Made by a program: the position numbers and the translations under genes | Part shown: piece by piece, positions 6,592 through 62,485 of the stretch | How positions within the stretch are numbered: position 1 is the stretch's first letter | How the letters are laid out: each line of letters opens with the position of its first letter | Virus record (IMG/VR): IMGVR_UViG_2695420662_000003 | Span: 32,001 to 96,000 of that record | DNA from: a virus | Taxonomy: Duplodnaviria > Caudoviricetes | Length of the DNA stretch: 64,000 bases | Direction: 5' to 3' (one strand) | The notes under the pieces: generated by a model | The model's database searches: none | What the model was told of the DNA's origin: nothing | Seen by the model: only the letters and a program-made list of their open reading frames with translations

Positions 6592-7701
6592 TTAATTCGT
6601 TATTCCATATTTCTCAAATAAATGCTTTTGTGGAGCAAATTCTTTGAAATACTTATTTTCGGCTTTCAACCTGGCAACTATAGCATCATTCTTATCTTTA
6701 TATGTGCCAAGTCTATATATTTTATTATTACATCGTATGTACGAACTCCATTTTTCACAATCTTTTCTATAACAGACGCCTGTAATTCCGCTAGTGTTAC
6801 TTTTTCTTAATCCAACGTTTTTGACATTATCACTCTGTTTTACTACTCTTAAATTCTCTTTTCTATTATCATACTTAACTCTATTTATATGGTCTATTAC
6901 GTAACCATCTTTTGTCTGCATTATAAGATTATGCATCTTTACCTTTTCGCCAAAACTTACAGATTCAACATATTCCTCTTTGTAGTGCCATGTATAATCT
7001 TTTATTTTATCGTAATCTTCTTTATCAAAGTAGAATGGTTGATTTTTATTAGTGTATCCGATTCCATATTCATTTGTTAGATCATATGTATTATTGTTAT
7101 TTCTTCTATCTATTTCCTTAAGTATGCATCCGCAAGATATAACTGATTTAGTTTTTAATCGATGCGAACTTACAACGCTATTCTCACCACATTCACATTT
7201 ACAATTCCAGTAATAATGTCCTTGATTATCTTTATGACTTAATCCAACTACTGTTAATCTATTTACTACTTTGCCTATAAAATCTTCAAATTCATTTTGA
7301 AGGCAACCACATGATTTCGAAGTTCCTTTATTTAAAGAGTTTAAATAATAACTCTTTATTTCACTACATTCACACCTACAAAGTAATTTTCTATGTTTTG
7401 TCGAACTATCATCCGCCTCTTTTATCACTGTAAGTCTTCCAAATTTTAAACCTATGTAATCCTCTATATTGAAAGGTTTAGATTTAAACCCTGTACAATC
7501 TGTACATAAAACCGAATTTCTTCTTTTGATATTATCCCAACTTCTACTCTCTATTATATTTCCACACCTACATATCCATTTATGAGGATGTCTTACGTTC
7601 AAATACATATCATCATACAGTTTTAAATTATATTCTGATAATAGCTTATTAACTTCTGTATTTGTCATGTTAGGTTTAATTTTTACATCTTTCAATTTCA
7701 A
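6592..7701 (-). CDS. Free-standing HNH homing endonuclease with AP2 domain
   Basis: Repeated FGRLTV..CxCxC..SCGC modules, DHINRVKYDNRKENLR, NTSGITGV...AP2; inserted between helicase and primase. Confidence 0.9.
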   Translation of the reverse strand: MKLKDVKIKPNMTNTEVNKLLSEYNLKLYDDMYLNVRHPHKWICRCGNIIESRSWDNIKRRNSVLCTDCTGFKSKPFNIEDYIGLKFGRLTVIKEADDSSTKHRKLLCRCECSEIKSYYLNSLNKGTSKSCGCLQNEFEDFIGKVVNRLTVVGLSHKDNQGHYYWNCKCECGENSVVSSHRLKTKSVISCGCILKEIDRRNNNNTYDLTNEYGIGYTNKNQPFYFDKEDYDKIKDYTWHYKEEYVESVSFGEKVKMHNLIMQTKDGYVIDHINRVKYDNRKENLRVVKQSDNVKNVGLRKSNTSGITGVCYRKDCEKWSSYIRCNNKIYRLGTYKDKNDAIVARLKAENKYFKEFAPQKHLFEKYGITN

Positions 7702-39557: not shown

Positions 39558-40301
39558 TTAGAAACTATATTCATTATATACATTTAATACCTTATCAAGT
39601 GCTTGTTTTAGATCTCCATTATCTAAATCGTCTCTATAATAGTGTTTAATACCTTCTGCGATATATTCGTTTATATCTTCATAATAGTAATCGCTGCCAA
39701 AATAGAATTCCTTATCATTAAAAGACTTTTGTATTTGATCTTCTTCATGTAAAGCCCAAACCTTAACAAGTGCGTGGCCTATTTCATGTAATAATGCATG
39801 TTCTACTTGATCGTATTCAACAACTATTTTATTTTTATTTTCGTTATTATATGTAATAAATTCACCTGCTACGTCTATCTTTTTACCAAATACAACGCTA
39901 TCTTCTATCTTATTAACTGCACTTATTTCTAAGTTATAGTTATACTTAAGATCTGATAATACATTTTCAGGAAGTTTATTTAATTCCTTTTTCATATTCT
40001 CAAATGCCTTTATTTTATCTATGTCAGAGTTATTTATTTTACCTATTGAATTGTCTATTTTTAAATATGTACTATTTATTAATTTGAATTCTTTTACATC
40101 GTAGAATATATTTAAATATTCGCTTGATCCATCATTAAAAGTTATTTGTATATCTCCGTCATCTGCCAACTGATAGCATTCAATTTGTTTTTCTGGTTTA
40201 ATATCCTCTTTATTATCAAGACTAAAAACGTTTAAATTTGTATTTGTTACTAATATAGTAACCATTAAAACTAATGCTAAATTTTCTATTATTTTTCTCA
40301 T
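39558..40301 (-). CDS. Secreted zinc metallopeptidase (ATLF/PPEP-like zincin)
   Basis: Signal-peptide-like N-terminus, LP..V...L, AGEF, LLHEIGHAL, EYIAEG. Confidence 0.75.
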   Translation of the reverse strand: MRKIIENLALVLMVTILVTNTNLNVFSLDNKEDIKPEKQIECYQLADDGDIQITFNDGSSEYLNIFYDVKEFKLINSTYLKIDNSIGKINNSDIDKIKAFENMKKELNKLPENVLSDLKYNYNLEISAVNKIEDSVVFGKKIDVAGEFITYNNENKNKIVVEYDQVEHALLHEIGHALVKVWALHEEDQIQKSFNDKEFYFGSDYYYEDINEYIAEGIKHYYRDDLDNGDLKQALDKVLNVYNEYSF

Positions 40302-40489
40302 ATGTACTAATCCCCTTTGTTTTTTTATTATTTATACTTTAATTATATGCGCTATTGTATTATTTGTCAATAAAAACATTAAAAATAATGAAAAAATTTT
40401 TTAAAATAGGTTGTTAAGTATGATAAATTCATATACAATTAAAGTATAAATAATAAATATTAATTATACATATAAAGGAGAATTTAAAA

Positions 40490-40843
40490 ATGAAAAGAGA
40501 AATATTAAGAGGTCAAATATACTACGCAGATCTAGGAGCGGCATTCAACAGCGAACAAAGTGGAGTTCGCCCAGTTCTTATAATACAAAATAACGTTGGT
40601 AATAAATACAGTCCAACAACAATTATTGCTGCTATTACATCATCTCAAAGTAAAGCAAAATTACCTACTCATATTGAATTAAAAGCAAGTGACGTTGAAG
40701 GTCTTAATAAAGATTCTATTGTTTTATGTGAGCAAATAAGAACTATTGATAAAAAGCGTTTAAAAGAGTTCAGAGGTCAATTAGATGATTATACAATGAT
40801 GGAAGTTTCGGCAGCAATCCAAACTTCTTTTGGTATGTTCTAA
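40490..40843 (+). CDS. mazF: PemK/MazF endoribonuclease (NdoA/EndoA-like), no adjacent antitoxin
   Basis: RGQIYYADL...SEQSGVRPVLIIQNNVGNKYSPT.I.AAITS...LPTH...DSIVLCEQIRTIDK.RL. Confidence 0.95.
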   Translation: MKREILRGQIYYADLGAAFNSEQSGVRPVLIIQNNVGNKYSPTTIIAAITSSQSKAKLPTHIELKASDVEGLNKDSIVLCEQIRTIDKKRLKEFRGQLDDYTMMEVSAAIQTSFGMF

Positions 40844-41117
40844 GGATATCTTTACGTCTTATATTATGATATCCTTAGATTTACACTTGTGTTGTTCTAT
40901 ATTTAGTTTTAATTACATATGTACCTATTTACTTAACCCTTTTAGTTTACCGTCATGAATTATAAAACTTATATTCATATTTTCAAATATGCTTTTTGCA
41001 TCCTCTAAAGTTATATTTTTTATATCTTTAATAAACATTAACATGTACCTCCAGGAAAATTTTATATATTTAGTTGTGTTTAATATGTACTTAATAGTAT
41101 TGCGGGATACTATTTAT

Positions 41118-41309
41118 TTACTTAAATACTTTGTCTATTCTAACGCCTAAGATGTCACATAGTTTTTTAAGTTTTGTTGCTGCAGGATCTACTTTATAAT
41201 TTACCCATCTACTATAAGTAGACTTGTTTATATCTAGTTTTTCACATATCTGAATCACTGTAAATCCTTGTTTTTCTCTAAGTGATTCTATTAATTCAAA
41301 ATTAATCAT
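41118..41309 (-). CDS. XRE-family HTH regulator
   Basis: LREKQGFT..QICEKLDINKSTYSRW....P....LKKLCDILGV. Confidence 0.88.
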   Translation of the reverse strand: MINFELIESLREKQGFTVIQICEKLDINKSTYSRWVNYKVDPAATKLKKLCDILGVRIDKVFK

Positions 41310-41327
41310 TTAAACCCTCCTAAGAAT

Positions 41328-41413
41328 AATTGCATATTTGCAACCTTGATATTAGTTATTTAACATTAACTATTTATACTATAAGTATAGCATCTTAATT
41401 GCATATTTGCAAC
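41328..41413. promoter_or_regulatory. Two identical palindromic operators AATTGCATATTTGCAAC upstream of XRE gene
   Basis: Copies at 41328-41344 and 41397-41413; TTGCA-N4-TGCAA dyad. Confidence 0.7.
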
Positions 41414-41487
41414 TAATTTTAGTAAATTTTATAATAAATATTTTTATATGTACTGGTAATAGCGCTTAAAGGCCGCTATCAAACCTG

Positions 41488-42801
41488 ATAAAATCTACAA
41501 TTTATTGGGTTTATATAACCCATTTATAGTCATTAGTAGTTAATCACTATTGGATGTAAATCTACACCCTTTATTCCATTTGCAAAAGCATTTGGAAATA
41601 CTTTCTTTATTATTTGATAAGATCCATTTGCATCAGCATTAATACTAATCCCTTTATTTGATATAAACAACCCTCTATATTTACGTCTTGATTTATTATA
41701 GTTTTCCTTTATAGGTAATTCGTTATCTATAAAACTTGTTCCTGAAGTGTAGCTTTCTTCTGTTGTTATCAACTTAATACCATTTTCTTTGCATTTATAT
41801 TCTAACTTCTTTATAAAGTTATCATATGGTATTTGAATAAAATTTTGAGTATTACTACCTATTCTACACTCTTGTTTCCATTCTTTGTTAATTCCTATAA
41901 CTATCGTATTAATATTCATCCTTATACAATAATCAATTACTATTCTGCTAGCGCAGTGCATAAAATATTCTAACTTGTTATATCTCTTCATATTAATTCT
42001 ATCTAATCTTTTAGTCCAATCTAAATTATTATTAGTCTTTGCCAATCCTCTGTATTTAGATAACTGCTTATTATAGTATTGATTTATAGACTTTAACCCT
42101 TTGCCATTAATAACAATAGGCTTATATCCTATGTTATTTGTCATAGTTACAAAGTTATTTATTCCTAAATCAATTCCCATAATCCTATTATTAAATTCTC
42201 TTTCTTTGACATCTTTAGTTTGATAAACTATTTCAAGTATATAGCAGCCACCTTTAGGTATGATTCTAGTTTGCATATGTTTACCTTTTATTTTTGTTCT
42301 AATCAAATAATTATATGGCTTAAAAGGTTTGAATGCAAAATATAGATATCCTTCTTTAATTTGTGACTGCATATTAGTTAATATACACATATATCGCCCG
42401 TTTTTCTCTTTGTATCCTGGCAATTTTGGCTTACCTAAGTATTTGCTTGGCGTTTTATAATAGTCTTTAATTGATATTAAAAATGATTTCCAGGCCTTAT
42501 CCAGCATCTTTAATGTATGTTGTCCTGAGTTAGATCCTATTTCTTTGAATACCTCTGTGGTTTTTAGTCGCCTTGTTAGCTCGCTATACTTCTCTACTTT
42601 CTTTGTATAAATAAAAACTTGTCTTAATTCATAATTTGCATAATTGTATAAATTCTTAGATTTAAAACAATATTCATCGCATATATTCCACATTTTATGA
42701 TTTCTATTTATTATATGTCTTTCTACTCTATCTATGGATATTCCCTCCTTTGCATTAATATTTGAGAATTCAAAGTTAACCAAATGAAATTATACTTTTA
42801 T
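41488..42801 (-). mobile_element. TnpB-only element bounded by two 18-bp junction sites
   Basis: Sites ATAAAA-tctaca-ATTTAT (41488) and ATGAAA-ttatac-TTTTAT (42784) flank tnpB; no tnpA. Confidence 0.65.
41533..42783 (-). CDS. tnpB: TnpB RNA-guided nuclease (IS200/IS605/IS607 family)
   Basis: SKNLYNYANY, GIDLGINN (RuvC-I), IVIG.N..WKQ / EESYTS, RGLF..INADANG (RuvC-III); RBS points to codon at 42735. Confidence 0.93.
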   Translation of the reverse strand: MVNFEFSNINAKEGISIDRVERHIINRNHKMWNICDEYCFKSKNLYNYANYELRQVFIYTKKVEKYSELTRRLKTTEVFKEIGSNSGQHTLKMLDKAWKSFLISIKDYYKTPSKYLGKPKLPGYKEKNGRYMCILTNMQSQIKEGYLYFAFKPFKPYNYLIRTKIKGKHMQTRIIPKGGCYILEIVYQTKDVKEREFNNRIMGIDLGINNFVTMTNNIGYKPIVINGKGLKSINQYYNKQLSKYRGLAKTNNNLDWTKRLDRINMKRYNKLEYFMHCASRIVIDYCIRMNINTIVIGINKEWKQECRIGSNTQNFIQIPYDNFIKKLEYKCKENGIKLITTEESYTSGTSFIDNELPIKENYNKSRRKYRGLFISNKGISINADANGSYQIIKKVFPNAFANGIKGVDLHPIVINY

Positions 42802-43103
42802 TGTACTTTGTTATAAAGATCCATTAATTTATCAATTATATTTACAAGTTTATCTTTATGAATAGAGCCCTTTTTCTCTTCTATTTCCCTTTGAGTCTCT
42901 AATGAGTATACTATCATTCCTATTTCTGATTTACTTAATTTAACATCTATTGTATTTTTCATATCCTCTACACCATCCTTTTATAATATTTTTATATCCT
43001 AATAAAAGTTGAATTTTATTACCTTTAATACTGTTATAATAGGCGTTTTCGGTACGCCTCAACCGTTTATATTCATTTCTATTTATCATATGTACAATTT
43101 ATT

Positions 43104-43704
43104 TTATCTTCTTTTACTTATTAAGCAATCTTTATGGCCAACTAGATCATTGCATTCATACCTAGTATAACTATATTCGTTATTTATAGGATTCAAGTAC
43201 TTCTTTTCCTCTATTTGATGATGTATTTCAGAAACTTCTTTTCCGCAAACCTCACATACTCCATATTTTCTAGAACTTTCATTCCAATTTGTTATTGTAT
43301 ATCTATATTCATTTCTCATATTTACACCCTCCAATTTTTATTATTTAATTATTTCATCATATGTACATTTAAAACTATCTTAATCCAAATATCTTTTCGT
43401 TGTTCGCTGCTATTTCTGTTAATGCTAAGTTTATTCTGTTTATTACCTTGTTTCTATCCTTTAGTTGTGAAAAGTCAAGTTTATCATTTTCAGTTATTAT
43501 ATTATAACCATTGCTATAATCTGTATATAATTTTAATTGCTTAGGTTGATTATTTAATAACCATCTCTTAAATTGACATCTTATATATGCAAGATCCGTT
43601 CTATCATTTAAGTTTATTTGCTTGTCGTTACCTTTGTTGAATTCTCTGTAATCTTTTCTAGTATCTATTTTTAAGAAATCCTTTAATATATTTTCTGCTT
43701 TCAT
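43104..43704 (-). other. Two small hypothetical genes (43104..43334, 43375..43704)
   Basis: ORF track, GGAGG RBSs, upstream promoter with operator at 43762. Confidence 0.6.
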
Positions 43705-44098
43705 GTCTACATCCTCCTAAATTTTATTTGATATCTGCGGGTTGTTATCTTAATTTAATTATATGATAAGTTCATACTACTGTCAATAACTTTTATAAAT
43801 TATTTTTAATTATATTCGTTATTGTGCGTTGTGTTCTTATCTTTTAATCTTTATATTTTAAGTATATGATAAGTTCATATAAAATGCAACCATTATTTTA
43901 AAATTTATTAAATTATTTTTATTTTATATATTAGGATTTATTAACTAAAAAGTATATGTATAATAGTATTTCCAATAGATTTAATAAAAATGATATAAAA
44001 TTACTTACATTATATTGTAATATATGATTTTATATGATATAATTAAGTTAATGAATAGTTAATACTATTCAAGTACATATTGAAGGAGATAATTAAAT

Positions 44099-44680
44099 AT
44101 GAAAAAGAGTGAGTTAAGAATGTATTTAAGAAGTAAATTACATTTATATTGGAGACCAGTAGTGATTAAAGATTGCTGCGAACACTGCGGATCTAAAGAG
44201 AATTTAGAATTACATCATAAATCAGATAGGTTTAAAGATATAATATCTAATGTTTTAAACGAGTTCGGATACGATGACGATACAAAATTAAAAGATATTC
44301 ATAATATTGAGTTGATAGTAGATGTTATTTTGGGAAGACATCTTTACATTAAGCATATTACACTATGTTCGGATTGTCATATTAAGGAGCATCAGAGGTT
44401 AAGTAATAAACATAATAGGAGACTATTTGAAGATGTAGAGTTCCCAAAGGAATTTTTAGATATACCATTAACTACAAGAGAAAAAGATTTAATAGTTAAA
44501 TATTATGATTTATATAATGAAAAAGGTAGACAGTATAAATGGAGAGGGATAAAAGCATTTTTAATCAATAGTAATACATATCAGGTGATCTCAAAGTCAA
44601 TAAGAATTCCAGGAAATACACATCCAATAAAATGCGATATAGTAAGTAGATTTAATAAAAATTTAAAAGGAGGTAAATAA
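44099..44680 (+). CDS. HNH-like nuclease domain protein
   Basis: CEHCGSKENLELHH...TLCSDCHIKEH. Confidence 0.7.
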   Translation: MKKSELRMYLRSKLHLYWRPVVIKDCCEHCGSKENLELHHKSDRFKDIISNVLNEFGYDDDTKLKDIHNIELIVDVILGRHLYIKHITLCSDCHIKEHQRLSNKHNRRLFEDVEFPKEFLDIPLTTREKDLIVKYYDLYNEKGRQYKWRGIKAFLINSNTYQVISKSIRIPGNTHPIKCDIVSRFNKNLKGGK

Positions 44681-54757: not shown

Positions 54758-55468
54758 TTGATTATGAACGAATTAAAAATATGTAGCAAGTGTGGGAAAA
54801 CTAAAGATATAGAATGCTTCGAACTACATTCTGTTAATAAAGAAACTGGTAAAATTAATTTAAGAGGACAATGCAAAGAATGTAGAAAAAATATAAGAGA
54901 TAATAAGAAGGATTTAAGAATTGATTATGACAAGGCTAAATATAAAGAGAATAGGGATAAAATATTAGAAAGAAAGAAAGAGTATTACAGGGAAAACAGA
55001 GAAAAGATATTAGAATATAAATCTAGATATTATATTGAAAATATAGATAAAATTAAAGAATATTCAAAGTTATATCGATCTAATTGTGGAGAAGTAAGAA
55101 GGGTGGCGGAATATAAAAGAAGAAGTTTGATTAAAGGGTATAAATACACAAATGAAGAATGGGAAAAATGTCTTGAATTTTTTAATAATAGATGTGCATA
55201 TACTGGGGTTGAATTAACTAAGGAGAATACACATAGAGATCATATTATCCCTCTGTCAAAGGGTGGATTGAACGTGATAAGAAATATAGTGCCAGCTTTG
55301 AGTAGTGCAAATATATCTAAAAGAGATAAAGATATGGAAACATGGTTTAGAAGTAAGGACTTCTTCGACGAAGGTAGGTTAAATAGAATAATTGAATGGA
55401 TGAAATTTAATGATGTTCACGCTTTAATAGATAGTATAGAAACTTTAGAGGATATATTTGATATATAG
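54758..55468 (+). CDS. HNH endonuclease
   Basis: CSKCG..K, CKEC, F.NRCAYTG....HRDHIIPLSKGG.N...NIVP.....N.SK. Confidence 0.9.
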   Translation: MIMNELKICSKCGKTKDIECFELHSVNKETGKINLRGQCKECRKNIRDNKKDLRIDYDKAKYKENRDKILERKKEYYRENREKILEYKSRYYIENIDKIKEYSKLYRSNCGEVRRVAEYKRRSLIKGYKYTNEEWEKCLEFFNNRCAYTGVELTKENTHRDHIIPLSKGGLNVIRNIVPALSSANISKRDKDMETWFRSKDFFDEGRLNRIIEWMKFNDVHALIDSIETLEDIFDI

Positions 55469-56927
55469 GGGGAAATTAAATATGACGTTTACAAATAATA
55501 ATTTTAGAGGAAGAATAGATGGTAAAGATTTATATTATTATACAAATAATTTAGATTACAAAATACAGGATACAGAAAATAGAATAAAATATATAGAAGA
55601 TAGATTAGGATCGAAATTAATAGGATATAAAAAATTAGATAGGCATAATTGTACATATGATATGAAGGTTCAAGCAAATGATAAATATTGGGAAGAAATC
55701 TTTATACAAACATCGGATATTGCTTTAGATAAAGATGGTTTATATCAGGTCGAAGATGAAGGGAAAATTAAATTAGTAAGTTATAGCGAGTACATATCAT
55801 GGTGTGAATTAAACAATAAAGATGCATTAGAGTACGCTGATATAAATAATCCATTTAAAGCCATCCCTTACGAAAATATTCATGAAGAGGATGAAATATA
55901 CGATGATGTAAAGATAGAACGTGGAGAGTGGAAATATACAGGTCAGAACACATCTAAAATTAAATTGGTTCTTAATAAGTCGGATGATTTATATTCAACA
56001 TCAAATATAGCAAAAGGATTAGAAAAATTAGGTAGTTATATATTGAATGCGCCAGTACATATTAAAGACGGTAAAGAGATTCCAAAAAAAGAAAATTTAA
56101 AATATAAGATATATAATAGTAGAGAATTGTTTAATAGGGCATGCCAAGAATATAATACAATAAACAGATTCTTGAGAGCAAATGGAATTACAGATAAATC
56201 AGAAGATTTAGAAGGTGAAGCAATACCGATGTTTCAACCTCATAAGCAAAACTTTAATAAGGTTAAAACTGTAAGATATATGGGATATGGAGATATTAAA
56301 AAATATCCTATGCTTAAATCATATGTTGAGTTACACGATAAACTAAAATATGAATTAAAAAAACCAAATAGTAAATTAGATAAGAAGAAACTTCCGTATA
56401 TAATGAAAGGATTAAAGGATGATTTAGATTTAGTTAAACAATCATCACTAAAACCTATAATATTTAAAGCACCATTAACTCCAACTCCAAAATCTATATA
56501 TGAAGACATAGTAATCCCTTATAAAAAGGAATTATATGGAATGCTGCAATCAAAAGTTGAAGATTTAAGAGATTTAGATATGATGTGTTGCCATATAGAT
56601 TTAATGAATATAATGAAAAAATGCAAATTCACAGAAAGACAAAAAGAAATACTTGATTTATGGTCAAGAGATTATTCTACAACAGAAATAGGTGAGATAT
56701 TAGATGTAAGTAGACAAGAAATAGAAAGGTCTATGAGTGTAATTATAAATATGATAATAAGAAAATATAAAGATCAATATGAGGATTGGATAGGATTTAA
56801 TTATAAAAAATCAGAATGGAAACAATGCAGTAAATGCAATGAGGTTAAATTAATAAAGAGATTTAATAAAAATGGAAAATATATAATGTCTCTATGCAAA
56901 GATTGTGATTTGAATAGAAAGAAATAA
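55458..56927 (+). CDS. Putative late transcription regulator with sigma-region-4/LuxR-like HTH
   Basis: FTERQKEILDL....YS..EIGEILDVSRQ; C-terminal CSKC...CKDC; precedes packaging genes. Confidence 0.65.
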   Translation: MIYRGKLNMTFTNNNFRGRIDGKDLYYYTNNLDYKIQDTENRIKYIEDRLGSKLIGYKKLDRHNCTYDMKVQANDKYWEEIFIQTSDIALDKDGLYQVEDEGKIKLVSYSEYISWCELNNKDALEYADINNPFKAIPYENIHEEDEIYDDVKIERGEWKYTGQNTSKIKLVLNKSDDLYSTSNIAKGLEKLGSYILNAPVHIKDGKEIPKKENLKYKIYNSRELFNRACQEYNTINRFLRANGITDKSEDLEGEAIPMFQPHKQNFNKVKTVRYMGYGDIKKYPMLKSYVELHDKLKYELKKPNSKLDKKKLPYIMKGLKDDLDLVKQSSLKPIIFKAPLTPTPKSIYEDIVIPYKKELYGMLQSKVEDLRDLDMMCCHIDLMNIMKKCKFTERQKEILDLWSRDYSTTEIGEILDVSRQEIERSMSVIINMIIRKYKDQYEDWIGFNYKKSEWKQCSKCNEVKLIKRFNKNGKYIMSLCKDCDLNRKK

Positions 56928-59300: not shown

Positions 59301-61038
59301 TAATATAATAAAGGTAGAAGGGTGGTGTTATAATATGTTATTAGATAAATCGTTAAATATAAAATGGAATAATGCAACAAAGGATTATTACATATCAAAA
59401 GGTTATAATTATACAAAAAAGAATGATATATTTACGATAGATATCGAAGATATGATTACAACATCAACTATAAGAGTGAACGTTAAATGTGATTATTGTG
59501 GTGATATTCATAAAAAAGAATATAGAGGATATATAAAAGGTAGGGAATATATAGATAAAGATTGTTGTAGTAATACAATATGTAGAAATAGAAAACTACA
59601 AGATGTTAACTTAAAATTATATGGTGTAAAAAATGCAGGACAAAGGGATGATGTAAAGGCGAAATTAAGTAAAATAAAAAGAATGCCTTTTAATCAGGTT
59701 AAATCTATGTTTGATAAAAAAGAATTAGATTTAATAAGCAGAGAAAGTGATTATATAAATGGAAAAAGCAAATTGAAATTTATATGTAATTACCATAAAG
59801 AAAAGGGTATTCAGACTACAACATTAGATAGTCTTAGAAGTAGCAAACACTGTTGTAATTTTGGGGCAATAGAACATGTTTCCAATATTAGAAGATTTGA
59901 TATAGAGAAAGTTAAATCTTTATTTGTAGAAAAGGGATATATTCCTAAGTTTGATACATATGAAAATAATCAAATACCTATACCTTTTATGTGCGAAAAA
60001 CATATGAATGCAGGTATTCAATATGTGAGTTATGCTAACCTGCAACAAGGTCAAAGAGGTTGTAAGGTTTGTTCAATAGAATCGGTAAAAGATAAGCATA
60101 GAGAAGATAAAAATATTGTTTATGCCCTATTTCATGAGAAAGGTCTAAGTGTGTTAGATGGCGAAGAATATCTTAACAAAGATACTCACATGAAATTTAC
60201 ATGTAACAAACATCCAAATATAATTCAGAGTACGACATATGCAGGGTTGAAGCGAACTGATAATCCTTGTTATGCATGTAGAAATGAATTAAGTTACTCT
60301 AAATTAAATAAGAGATTAAGAAGTAGTATCGGTAAATGGAGAAGAAAGACTGAGATTAAATGTAAATCAAAATGCGTATTAACTTCAAGTGAAGTATATG
60401 ATATTCATCATTTGCATCAATACAATGCTATAGTTGTAGAGGCGGTAACATCTTTAAAATTAGACGTTAATAATATAAATGGTGTGGATTTTGAAAACTT
60501 AAAAAATAAAGTCATAGAACTTCATGAGACATATGGTGAAGGTGTTTGTATTCATCCCGAACTACATCAATTACTACACATGAAATTTGGAAAAGATACC
60601 ACAATAGAAGATTATTATAAATTTAAAGAAAACTACCTTAACGGAGTTTACGATAATGAAATAAAAATAAGTAAACTTACGCCCCGTACATGAAGAAATT
60701 CATGTAGGACACAACCTTAAAACCAGTAATTCCTAAAGCTCAACAACTACAATAAGAGATAAAATCATAAACTCTTATGAACGTGAGGAAACTCAGAAAC
60801 AATGGTTGAGATGGCATATGGTGAGAACCTAAGTGTCGTAAACAATGGATGTTTGGTCGCCAAGCCTAGAAATAGGAAGGTCAAACGACTAGTCGAAAAA
60901 GACGTACACTTAAGCGAGTGGAAACGGGTTGCCCTTAGCACGTAATGGTGAAGGTGAAGAAATAGTCTACTCTCATGTGAAAGCATGAGGCTCAAAGTTG
61001 AGCATTGCAAGTGTAGCGACTTGTAATAAATATTTATG
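59300..61038 (+). mobile_element. Group I intron with homing endonuclease in terL
   Basis: P7 pair AACGACTAG (about 60885) / GAAATAGTCT (about 60959), P9 CTCATGTGAAAGCATGAG, td-like 3' end ...TAGCGACTTGTAATAAATATTTATG; removal restores KDKG-QAKL. Confidence 0.9.
59335..60693 (+). CDS. Intron-encoded homing endonuclease (HNH-like, repeated Zn-binding modules)
   Basis: Repeated Y.N....(L/M).F.C..H modules, C-terminal CVLT...DIHH...CIHPELHQLLH..FG. Confidence 0.85.
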   Translation: MLLDKSLNIKWNNATKDYYISKGYNYTKKNDIFTIDIEDMITTSTIRVNVKCDYCGDIHKKEYRGYIKGREYIDKDCCSNTICRNRKLQDVNLKLYGVKNAGQRDDVKAKLSKIKRMPFNQVKSMFDKKELDLISRESDYINGKSKLKFICNYHKEKGIQTTTLDSLRSSKHCCNFGAIEHVSNIRRFDIEKVKSLFVEKGYIPKFDTYENNQIPIPFMCEKHMNAGIQYVSYANLQQGQRGCKVCSIESVKDKHREDKNIVYALFHEKGLSVLDGEEYLNKDTHMKFTCNKHPNIIQSTTYAGLKRTDNPCYACRNELSYSKLNKRLRSSIGKWRRKTEIKCKSKCVLTSSEVYDIHHLHQYNAIVVEAVTSLKLDVNNINGVDFENLKNKVIELHETYGEGVCIHPELHQLLHMKFGKDTTIEDYYKFKENYLNGVYDNEIKISKLTPRT

Positions 61039-62485
61039 GCAAGCAAAGTTGATGATAACACAGAAGATAGAAAAAGAGTTAATGAACTACGAAGGTTCTA
61101 TGTTGCGATTTGAATTGAAGCCCGGTAGAGAAGGTATACAGACCGGAGCAAATGATGCGAAGGTAATATTCAAAAACGGAAGTACAATAGAATGTACAAC
61201 AAGCGGTGAAAGTGCCAGAGGTTATAGAGGTAATATACTTATAGTCGATGAATTTAGACTTGTACCGAAAGATGTTTTAGATAAAATACTAAGACCTTTC
61301 TTAACTGTAGTTTATAACCCACCTTTTTATAAAAAAGATAAATATAAGGATTATCCGAAGTTTGAAAACAAGGAAATATATATGTCTTCCGCATGGTTAA
61401 AAGCGCACGATTCATATATAAAGTTTAAATCATATATAAACTCTATGCTAAAAGGTGAAAATTACGCTTGTGTAGATTTACCTTATACAGTTGCTAGAGA
61501 TGAAGGCTTTTTAACACAAGCCAGAATAGATGCCATAAGGAACGAGGATGATATGTCTGAAATGTCCTGGCAAATGGAAATGCAAGGTATGTGGTTTGGA
61601 GAATCTGAATCGGCATTTTATAAATTAGGAGAGATTGAACCTAATAGAAATATAAAAAAAGCGTGGATTCCTCCTACAAAAGAATTGTACATATTAGAAA
61701 AGGATAAACGTAAAAAATCATATCATTTACCTAAGCAAGAGGGTGAGAAAAGGTTAATCGGAGTAGATATAGCCTTGATGCAAGGTAGTACAAACGATAA
61801 CACTATATTCACTATGATGAGATTAATACCTAATGGTGAAAATTATGATCGTTATATAGTTAATATAGAATCTTATGAAGGAGTTCATTCAGAATCTCAA
61901 GCGATAAGAATCAAACAATTATTTGATGATTTTCAAGCAGATTATATCGTATGTGATACCGCAGGTAATGGACTTGGAGTATATGATGCAATGGCAAAAG
62001 TTCAATACGACTCAGATAGAGATATTGAATATCCACCATTTATAGCATTCAATGATGAGAGGATGTCATCTAGAAGTTTAAATAAAAATGGAATACCTTG
62101 TGTGTATTCAATGAAAGTAACTCAAGCGGAAACGAACCATCAAATATGTACATGGTTGAAGGATGATTTGCAAAATAATAGATTGAAATTATTAATAAAT
62201 GATATAGAAGCAAAGTCTTATCTTAGTGATAATCATAGTTTCGATATAAAAACAGTAGAAGAACAAGTAAGCATGTTAAAACCATATTTGCAAACTTCCG
62301 CATTAGTTAATGAAATGGTTAACCTTGAATGGAAAACAATAGGTATTTATATAAAGGTTTTCGAGATAGGAAGAAATAGAAAAGACCGATATTCATCATT
62401 AGCATATTGTAATTATTATGCGAGAATATTAGAGAAGCAATTAAAAAAACCAAAGAAAAAAGGTGGCTTTGTGGCGCTTTGGTAA
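61039..62485 (+). CDS. terL: Terminase large subunit, exon 2
   Basis: ARGYRGNILIVDEFR Walker B, YMSSAW, IGVDIA, KDRYSSLAY nuclease motifs. Confidence 0.93.

Follow-up and report, generated by a model that had tools for sequence, protein, structure and literature searches.

A transposase-less TnpB with its right end fused into a gene-junction dyad of a large AT-rich phage: a candidate RNA-guided homing element

TnpB, the ancestor of Cas12, is encoded by genes that are among the most abundant known. A TnpB takes its guide from the sequence immediately past the omegaRNA scaffold, and the target-adjacent motif (TAM) stands before that same sequence in the empty site. Why transposase-less copies of TnpB persist, especially in viruses, is still a question. 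Here we describe one such copy, a tnpB without the transposase gene tnpA, in a ~131-kb phage (Caudoviricetes; IMG/VR record IMGVR_UViG_2695420662_000003, 130,836 bp with direct terminal repeats). The stretch analysed, called the window below, comprises 64,000 nucleotides (bases 32001–96000 of the record), and positions without further label are those of the window. The element is ~1.25–1.3 kb long, belongs to a RuvC-II-rearranged and zinc-finger-less clade and, together with ~46 relatives, offers a testable answer to the question of persistence; its layout suggests how it picks its target and stays in the phage.

The closest described elements are those of the IS607 type, represented by CboIStron TnpB and ISFba1 TnpB. 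A GG marks both the end and the insertion site of IS607 elements, and their TnpBs use G-rich TAMs resembling Shine-Dalgarno (SD) sequences, such as TGGG, AGGAG and GAGGG (PMC10690162, PMC11061315, PMC13565253). Relatives of the window TnpB likewise sit downstream of IS607 serine transposases and the fold is the same (8iaz), and here too the scaffold end is predicted to differ by one letter from the TAM, comparable to TGGG (TAM) and UCGG (scaffold end) in CboTnpB (PMC10690162). In contrast to the IS607 elements, the present locus has no tnpA, its RuvC-II glutamate has moved, the zinc finger is lost, an Rfam scan found no RAGATH-18 RNA, the scaffold overlaps the open reading frame (ORF), and the AT-rich right end falls within a phage dyad rather than at GG. 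IS200/IS605 homing (ISDra2, GstTnpB) is alike in its proposed logic, with the TAM as left flank, the guide past the right end, the empty site cut and then repaired from the filled copy, and an AT-rich TAM. However, the present element has no Y1 transposase, its relatives are tied to serine recombinases, and the proposed target is a repeated phage signal instead of a short tetra- or pentanucleotide.

Two phage systems are also comparable. Free-standing homing endonucleases of phages (intronless homing, SegF/SegB; PMC13565253) are nuclease genes between phage genes, as here, and the present nuclease would similarly spread by cutting alleles that lack it; SegF/SegB-type homing depends on polymorphisms read by protein, whereas RNA-guided recognition with a one-letter self-protection at the TAM position is proposed here. 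In T4-type phages, recombination between repeated regulatory motifs termed PeSLs shuffles small genes and makes mini-circles (PMC2839356). Short conserved intergenic motifs at the borders of small genes, with modules gained, lost or replaced there, are common to both cases (PMC2839356, PMC4122927), but PeSLs are promoter plus terminator units of tens of bases, whereas the motif described below is an 18-bp AT dyad between stop codon and ribosome-binding site. New at this locus are the fusion of the right end with a phage gene-junction dyad, the AT-rich TAM and guide that this implies, and a recurrent use of near-cognate start codons in the clade. A literature search of limited reach found no report of TnpB ends in phage gene-junction dyads, nor of natural near-cognate starts in tnpB.

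The locus is marked by 18-bp dyads of the form ATAAAA-N6-TTTTAT. The right-end dyad, ATAAATTGTAGATTTTAT (41505→41488, minus strand), lies past the tnpB stop codon. Upstream of tnpB stands ATAAAAGTATAATTTCAT (42801→42784, minus strand), a candidate TAM and left junction, whose perfect first half ATAAAA (42796–42801) overlaps the stop of a 54-aa ORF (42798–42962, minus strand; BhlA holin match weak and below cut-off) and whose spacer holds TATAAT. A perfect generic dyad, ATAAAATTCAACTTTTAT (43019→43002), is found upstream of the 54-aa ORF. All three sites named in the sequence-only reading, an earlier annotation made from the letters alone (sites at 41488, 42784 and 43002, the last two bracketing a small gene), are thus in place, with the 54-aa ORF between the last two.

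Running up to the right-end dyad is the predicted omegaRNA scaffold, made up of the last ~100 nt of the gene and 30 nt past the stop. It comprises four helices (41506–41600, minus strand); the stop codon falls within one of them, and the TGGGTT/AACCCA hairpin at 41506–41522 is the last. RNAalifold on 46 distinct related right ends, all from tnpA-less elements, predicted 17 base pairs, with compensatory changes in 13, and the single-sequence fold of the region had a z of −2.88. This covariation demonstrates, at the level of sequence comparison, a conserved 3′ structure that we read as the omegaRNA scaffold overlapping the 3′ end of tnpB. A permissive Rfam scan of 41000–43200 gave nothing above threshold and no RAGATH-18 (best match of any family, E 0.24). 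Both hairpins that had been noted from the letters, TGGGTT/AACCCA and the GC-richer ATAGCG/CGCTAT (41459–41479), are present; the latter stands in the flank directly past the predicted guide, with no T-run after it on either strand.

To place the right end, homologous loci (given L numbers below) were drawn from viral contigs (65), metagenomes (80 kept) and genomes (80 kept). All members of the tnpA-less subfamily to which the window copy belongs have a hairpin past the stop codon, followed by an 18-nt dyad-like motif. The first half of this motif is a variant: the 46 right ends carried ATAAAT (16), ATGAAT (14), ATAGAA (13), TTAAAT (2) or ATAGAT (1) and in no case the generic ATAAAA or ATGAAA, which make up 41/45 of the phage's other dyads. 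Pairs of elements with ORFs at least 88% identical were then split by the homology of their downstream flanks. Where these flanks were non-homologous (13 pairs), the first half matched at 100%, the spacer at 33% (about random), the second half at 88% and the 12 nt beyond it at 45%, while the 7 pairs with homologous downstream flanks had a spacer identity of 86%. The pair L030/L039 illustrates this. A gene that lies 4.5 kb downstream in L039, behind a generic dyad of its own, directly follows the tnpB element in L030; the right-end dyad of L030 is a hybrid, combining the element's ATAGAA with the downstream gene's own spacer, second half and ribosome-binding site. Since the spacer follows the flank and not the element, these comparisons show an inherited unit that apparently stops at the variant first half, which in the window is ATAAAT (41500–41505, minus strand), the last 6 nt of the element; spacer and second half would belong to the phage. 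They likewise show the element to sit, by the same comparison, in an occupied dyad, the 18-bp site at 41488–41505 being such a hybrid.

The dyad itself is a generic, lineage-specific phage signal that lies after a stop codon and ahead of the ribosome-binding site that follows. The degenerate pattern given in the earlier annotation had 30 strand-matches in the window, where 100 shuffles averaged 2.16 (maximum 10). Across the whole record 46 sites lay within one mismatch of ATAAAA-N6-TTTTAT; 20 shuffles averaged 13.6 (maximum 20), and the reversed sequence had 6. An ORF stop was found within a few bases before 20/46 dyads (3.3% at random positions), the TAA inside the dyad often being the stop codon of the preceding ORF, and 19/46 were followed by an SD sequence, a start codon and an ORF (5.6% at random positions). 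Other phage loci with these TnpBs showed the same arrangement between genes, including, in some other phages, the compensatory form ATGAAA-N6-TTTCAT before ribosome-binding sites. Such A/T to G/C covariation is predicted both for an RNA hairpin and for a palindromic protein site, so that it fits the two equally. Most small genes in this region of the phage have dyads on both sides, and flanking sites are therefore not peculiar to tnpB. A scan for consensus promoters gave 18 matches, not above the 16.2 in shuffles, and the one terminator-like match was the tnpB hairpin read on the opposite strand. As a host-wide signal the dyad was rejected, as five bacterial genomes were at the level of the reversed control, except for one phage-like contig (G004:C93). 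This 126-kb contig of a Clostridium metagenome-assembled genome (MAG), which holds L153, had 14 exact dyads among the matches listed, with the remaining genome at control level, and probably represents a similar phage that was binned with the MAG. At L074/L075 (4240–4640 of those loci) the genes share a ~30-nt leader ending in TAGGAGG instead of the AT dyad, and the right end of tnpB abuts this leader.

Taken as one joint statement, we hold with moderate confidence that a tnpA-less TnpB/omegaRNA element has its right end in an occupied phage dyad, takes its guide from the spacer and homes at that junction. Given that the element ends inside the dyad, the guide should start in the spacer: it would begin at 41499 and run through TTTTAT into the flank, the predicted guide-encoding stretch at 41480–41499 (minus strand; length assumed) being composed of the spacer (41494–41499), TTTTAT (41488–41493) and 8 nt of flank. 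As TAM the generic first half (about ATAAAA) is predicted, and the element's own ATAAAT, one letter off, would shield the occupied locus from self-cleavage, a self/target difference that parallels TGGG versus UCGG in CboTnpB (PMC10690162). TnpB would cut element-free copies of this junction, whether these are in co-infecting relatives or arise by loss of the element, and recombinational repair would copy the element back in, which amounts to homing. Translation from an ATA codon behind a strong SD sequence would hold the nuclease low, and transfer to new junctions would probably occur by recombination at dyads or with a serine TnpA acting in trans. The idea that the guide reads through the site into the flank had been put forward in the sequence-only reading; the 13 pairs, which place the end of the inherited unit within the site, agree with it, and the guide itself is what we infer from this end.

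This reading has testable content, namely a defined scaffold end, a guide from 41499 downwards, an AT-rich TAM that would be unusual for relatives of IS607 elements, and a one-letter rule for self and non-self. It would also tie an RNA-guided nuclease to a recurring gene-junction signal where modules are swapped, and could explain part of the mosaicism of these phages. A more far-reaching version, to which we give only tentative credence as a whole, is that the entire tnpA-less TnpB clade is specialised on a group of large AT-rich phages with the dyad as landing pad: its first half would serve as TAM, the rest together with the start of the next gene's leader as guide and the variant half as shield, each element would be an RNA-guided homing cassette for one junction, breaks at dyads would help to drive the gene shuffling seen between these phages, and near-cognate starts would be a selected throttle.

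The start of the gene bears on the last of these points. Read from ATA (42733–42735, minus strand), where the start codons and first residues of homologues align, the tnpB coding sequence spans 41533–42735 on the minus strand (400 aa plus stop). The SD sequence AAGGAGGG (42743–42750, minus strand) lies 7 nt before the ATA, which is probably a weak near-cognate start. An upstream TTG (42783) would lengthen the ORF to 41533–42783 (minus strand, 416 aa); it has no SD sequence, and the 16-aa extension is not common to homologues. Across 102 distinct homologous 5′ regions, 56 had a canonical ATG, GTG or TTG at SD spacing, 38 had near-cognate codons only and 8 were unclear, the near-cognate class covering solely ATA, ATT, ATC, ACG or GTA at SD spacing and L033, which has ATG, being misfiled in the tally. 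Because near-cognate cases span both subfamilies of the clade with intact reading frames, a selected weak start is more likely than decay. The strong ribosome-binding site before ATA instead of ATG, seen in the earlier annotation, is thus real, and relatives have ATG at that place; of the attenuated expression proposed from it, the ATA and its near-cognate counterparts in 38/102 homologues fit throttling, and throttling itself is predicted. More generally, ATA, ATT, ATC and ACG starts behind strong ribosome-binding sites point to selected low translation, which matters when compact nucleases are expressed as editors. Derivation of the tnpB start codon from a dyad half-site was also considered and dropped as an over-reading of AT-rich sequence.

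The protein was assigned by profile and by structure. Its matches were above cut-off for Pfam OrfB_IS605 (PF01385; E 2.3e−16, 60.5 bits, cut-off 30.5) and Cas12f1-like_TNB (PF07282; E 3.3e−09, 37.2 bits, cut-off 26.3) and for the NCBIfam model guided_TnpB (NF040570; 167 bits, cut-off 100). By sequence, the PDB gave one match (8j1j, E 5e−4), the likeness to solved TnpBs being very weak. An AlphaFold (AF2) model from a 57-sequence alignment reached a pLDDT of 89, and Foldseek placed it closest to Cas12f (AsCas12f, 8e−17), ISDra2 TnpB (8h1j, 1e−15; also 8exa), ISFba1 TnpB (8iaz, 3e−14) and Fanzor2. The catalytic positions are D189 in RuvC-I, G281 at the canonical RuvC-II glutamate (IVIG), the alternative E327 (EESYTS) and D368 in RuvC-III (NADxN). 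Each of the D, G, E and D positions is kept in 122/123 distinct homologues, which bears out the rearranged RuvC-II suspected from the letters and shows an intact TnpB with conserved D/E/D catalytic residues. The C4 zinc finger between RuvC-II and RuvC-III, usual in TnpB though not universal, is absent, its cysteine positions reading GTSF, and a cysteine stands there in 4/123 homologues.

These protein features are known biology. Glycine in place of the RuvC-II glutamate with a compensating glutamate is found in large TnpB clades, some of them virus-specific (RIIr; Altae-Tran et al. 2023, PMC10691335), and the same relocation is known in Fanzors (PMC13565253). The RIIr clades resemble the window TnpB in the G for E, the conserved alternative E, the NADxN of RuvC-III and the virus-specific branches; the available part of their description does not mention ends, target or start-codon usage as seen here. 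TldR proteins, nuclease-dead TnpB regulators, lose the RuvC catalytic residues that the window TnpB keeps.

Neither Resolvase (serine recombinase) nor Y1_Tnp (PF01797) had a match in the whole 130,836-bp record, in which this tnpB is single-copy and the sole TnpB. The observation of tnpB without tnpA therefore holds for the record, an absence that is not absolute because its completeness by CheckV is 71%. In 16 homologous loci the gene directly upstream of tnpB belonged to a single cluster, that of a serine recombinase; the one member tested (L023) matched Pfam Resolvase and the NCBIfam IS607 transposase model (192 bits, cut-off 110). This tnpA-linked subfamily forms sharply bounded units ending in ATAACCT. 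The window copy falls into a second subfamily, without tnpA, found mostly on large viral contigs and with a different right end. As its relatives carry IS607 serine transposases, the window TnpB is, judged from these relationships, a phage-adapted, tnpA-less offshoot of a clade descended from IS607-type elements.

Among the relatives, a deletion derivative (L062:4926–5262) joins the N-terminus of the IS607 transposase, in frame, with the last ~110 residues of TnpB. A further ~30 homologues, at 40–45% identity, occur in Asgard archaeal MAGs (Promethearchaeota and related; L167–L192 and others), their right ends sharing a conserved hairpin followed by GGTCT.

The left end was less uniform. In the window the first half of the left dyad is perfect, as is the second half of the right one, so that the outer halves together make a consensus dyad, which is weak evidence for insertion into one dyad, and the bases just past the left half-site resemble those of L085. 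Comparison of the left ends of related elements gave no common boundary, and DNA similarity of the window copy to its homologues begins at 42751–42724, where the SD sequence is also a candidate left boundary in view of the SD-like TAMs of IS607 elements.

Several observations weigh against our joint reading. A dyad at the left side was found in few relatives only (L085, L002, perhaps L033), and the left homology of related pairs stops near the SD sequence or the first codons, which fits the G-rich, SD-like TAMs of IS607 TnpBs (PMC11061315, PMC13565253). At the right end, the spacer is kept despite a differing downstream region in L074/L076, in L090/L152 and between the window and L063 (5/6), and a GG stands 0–2 nt past the dyad in 25/67 listed ends, which could mark an IS607-style end after the whole dyad. 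The flank past the right dyad of the window has no ribosome-binding site, making this an atypical occupied junction. The ATA could be a recent disabling mutation in the window copy. No copy more than 66% identical to it was present in the three collections (top identity 66% in viral, 64% in metagenome and 55% in genome contigs), for which reason the boundary rule is transferred from relatives and the ends of the window copy are not read from near-identical copies.

Empty-site alleles, whose occurrence in related phages had been suggested as a check, were not found in the searches made. In viral contigs, no match was found to 22 letters of the right flank. The 18-mer predicted for the empty site hit 35 stretches, about chance level and none with the flanks of the window locus; two neighbouring proteins (406 and 565 aa) led to no related phage, and megablast of 40400–44100 against GenBank phages gave no match. 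Homing and movement through the sites are for this reason inferred rather than observed.

Because GG lies near the dyad and IS607 TnpBs use G-rich TAMs and end in GG, a classical IS607 end is kept as an alternative, which we regard as distinctly unlikely. The element would then hold the whole dyad and end at GG 41484, with a guide from 41483, a G-rich, SD-like TAM and the left end at the SD sequence, and the likeness to the dyad would be mimicry that keeps the downstream gene expressed. The GG in 25/67 ends, the stop of left homology at the SD sequence, the published ends and TAMs of IS607 elements and the finding that the 21 nt before the guide are dispensable in ISFba1 (PMC11061315) would all suit such an end. 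Yet the spacer was not inherited with the element in 12/13 pairs with unrelated flanks, the L030/L039 dyad is a hybrid, and pairs such as L070/L071 diverge ahead of the GG, while a GG past the dyad is equally expected, since a ribosome-binding site normally follows generic dyads. On another account the dyads are recombination sites, like attC or PeSLs, that move, circularise and re-insert the tnpB unit, nuclease and guide being secondary. In related phages, replacement or insertion of gene blocks begins exactly at the right-end dyad (L074/L075, L026/L137, L070/L071, L030/L039), homology resuming inside another dyad in two of these cases and the L030/L039 difference being a 4.5-kb block between two dyads. 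The locus thus shares with PeSLs an enriched, repeated intergenic motif at which related phages exchange modules. Indels and replacements that start or end at dyads (L030/L039, L026/L137, L074/L075), and the dyad-like sequence formed when the right-end half-site is joined to the start of the left side in the window, L085 and L002, are what this account predicts, and the PeSL cassettes and mini-circles of T4-type phages are a precedent (PMC2839356).

We nevertheless consider site-specific movement of this kind unlikely to be the principal explanation. The recombinase it calls for was not identified (no Resolvase or Y1_Tnp in the record; tyrosine recombinases and integrases were not searched for), most relatives have no dyad at the left side, and the first half at the right end is a fixed variant travelling with the element, where free exchange between generic dyads would homogenise it. 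Integron attC sites are much longer than 18 bp, and illegitimate recombination driven by microhomology would give the same junctions without a site-specific system. The sequence-only reading had tnpB packaged as a cassette and moving through the sites in place of transposase ends. Gene blocks are indeed gained and lost exactly at dyads, including next to tnpB, there is no transposase and the right end is a dyad, but the sites are genome-wide rather than packaging specific to tnpB, and the clade comes from the IS607 type with no dyad recombinase identified. A decaying or domesticated gene, finally, would make the ATA a silenced relic, or TnpB a weapon kept against competitors or a TldR-like RNA-guided regulator. 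A single-copy tnpB with a non-ATG start and no transposase, beside a MazF-family toxin gene and a helix-turn-helix (HTH) gene and with MazF near tnpB in other loci, would be compatible with this. It is very improbable all the same, given a 400-codon frame that is open with its catalytic residues kept, unlike the nuclease-dead TldR, near-cognate starts behind strong SD sequences in 38/102 distinct relatives with intact frames, and a scaffold that covaries among relatives.

The surroundings of tnpB are those of a large phage with a GC of ~25–30%. Window proteins included a DNA polymerase, primase, helicase, HNH and other homing endonucleases, a sigma-factor-like protein and a portal protein. Just past the right end of tnpB lie a MazF/PemK-family toxin gene (40490–40843, plus strand; E 7.6e−34) and, divergent from it, an HTH_3 gene (41118–41309, minus strand). 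MazF alone had matches when 10 neighbouring ORFs were compared with the tnpB loci, its homologues lying within a few kb of tnpB in L060, L004 and L033. Upstream of the HTH gene, two exact copies of an 18-nt sequence, TAATTGCATATTTGCAAC, stand in direct orientation at 41327–41344 and 41396–41413, 69 nt apart, and look like an operator pair.

The octamer GTACATAT is present in 55 copies in the window against 4 expected (for example 43088–43095, 41446–41453 and 40300–40307). All copies but one (at 62144), that is 54/55, are on the regional coding strand, which is minus to 43.4 kb and plus from 44 kb. The whole record holds 112 copies, 70 of which are followed by G, several of the resulting ATGs being start codons right after a ribosome-binding site; elsewhere the octamer stands before the ribosome-binding site. 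Its probable role is that of a phage-specific expression signal.

Candidate mobile nucleases other than TnpB were also observed. These comprised an HNH endonuclease gene between the primase and helicase genes (6592–7701, minus strand), a homing-endonuclease-like gene near the portal gene (59335–60693, plus strand) and a 193-aa ORF with CxxC and HH motifs and no PHROG match (44099–44680, plus strand). A 489-aa protein (55458–56927, plus strand) matched a phage sigma-factor PHROG (E 1e−56) and is a candidate reader of phage-specific motifs.

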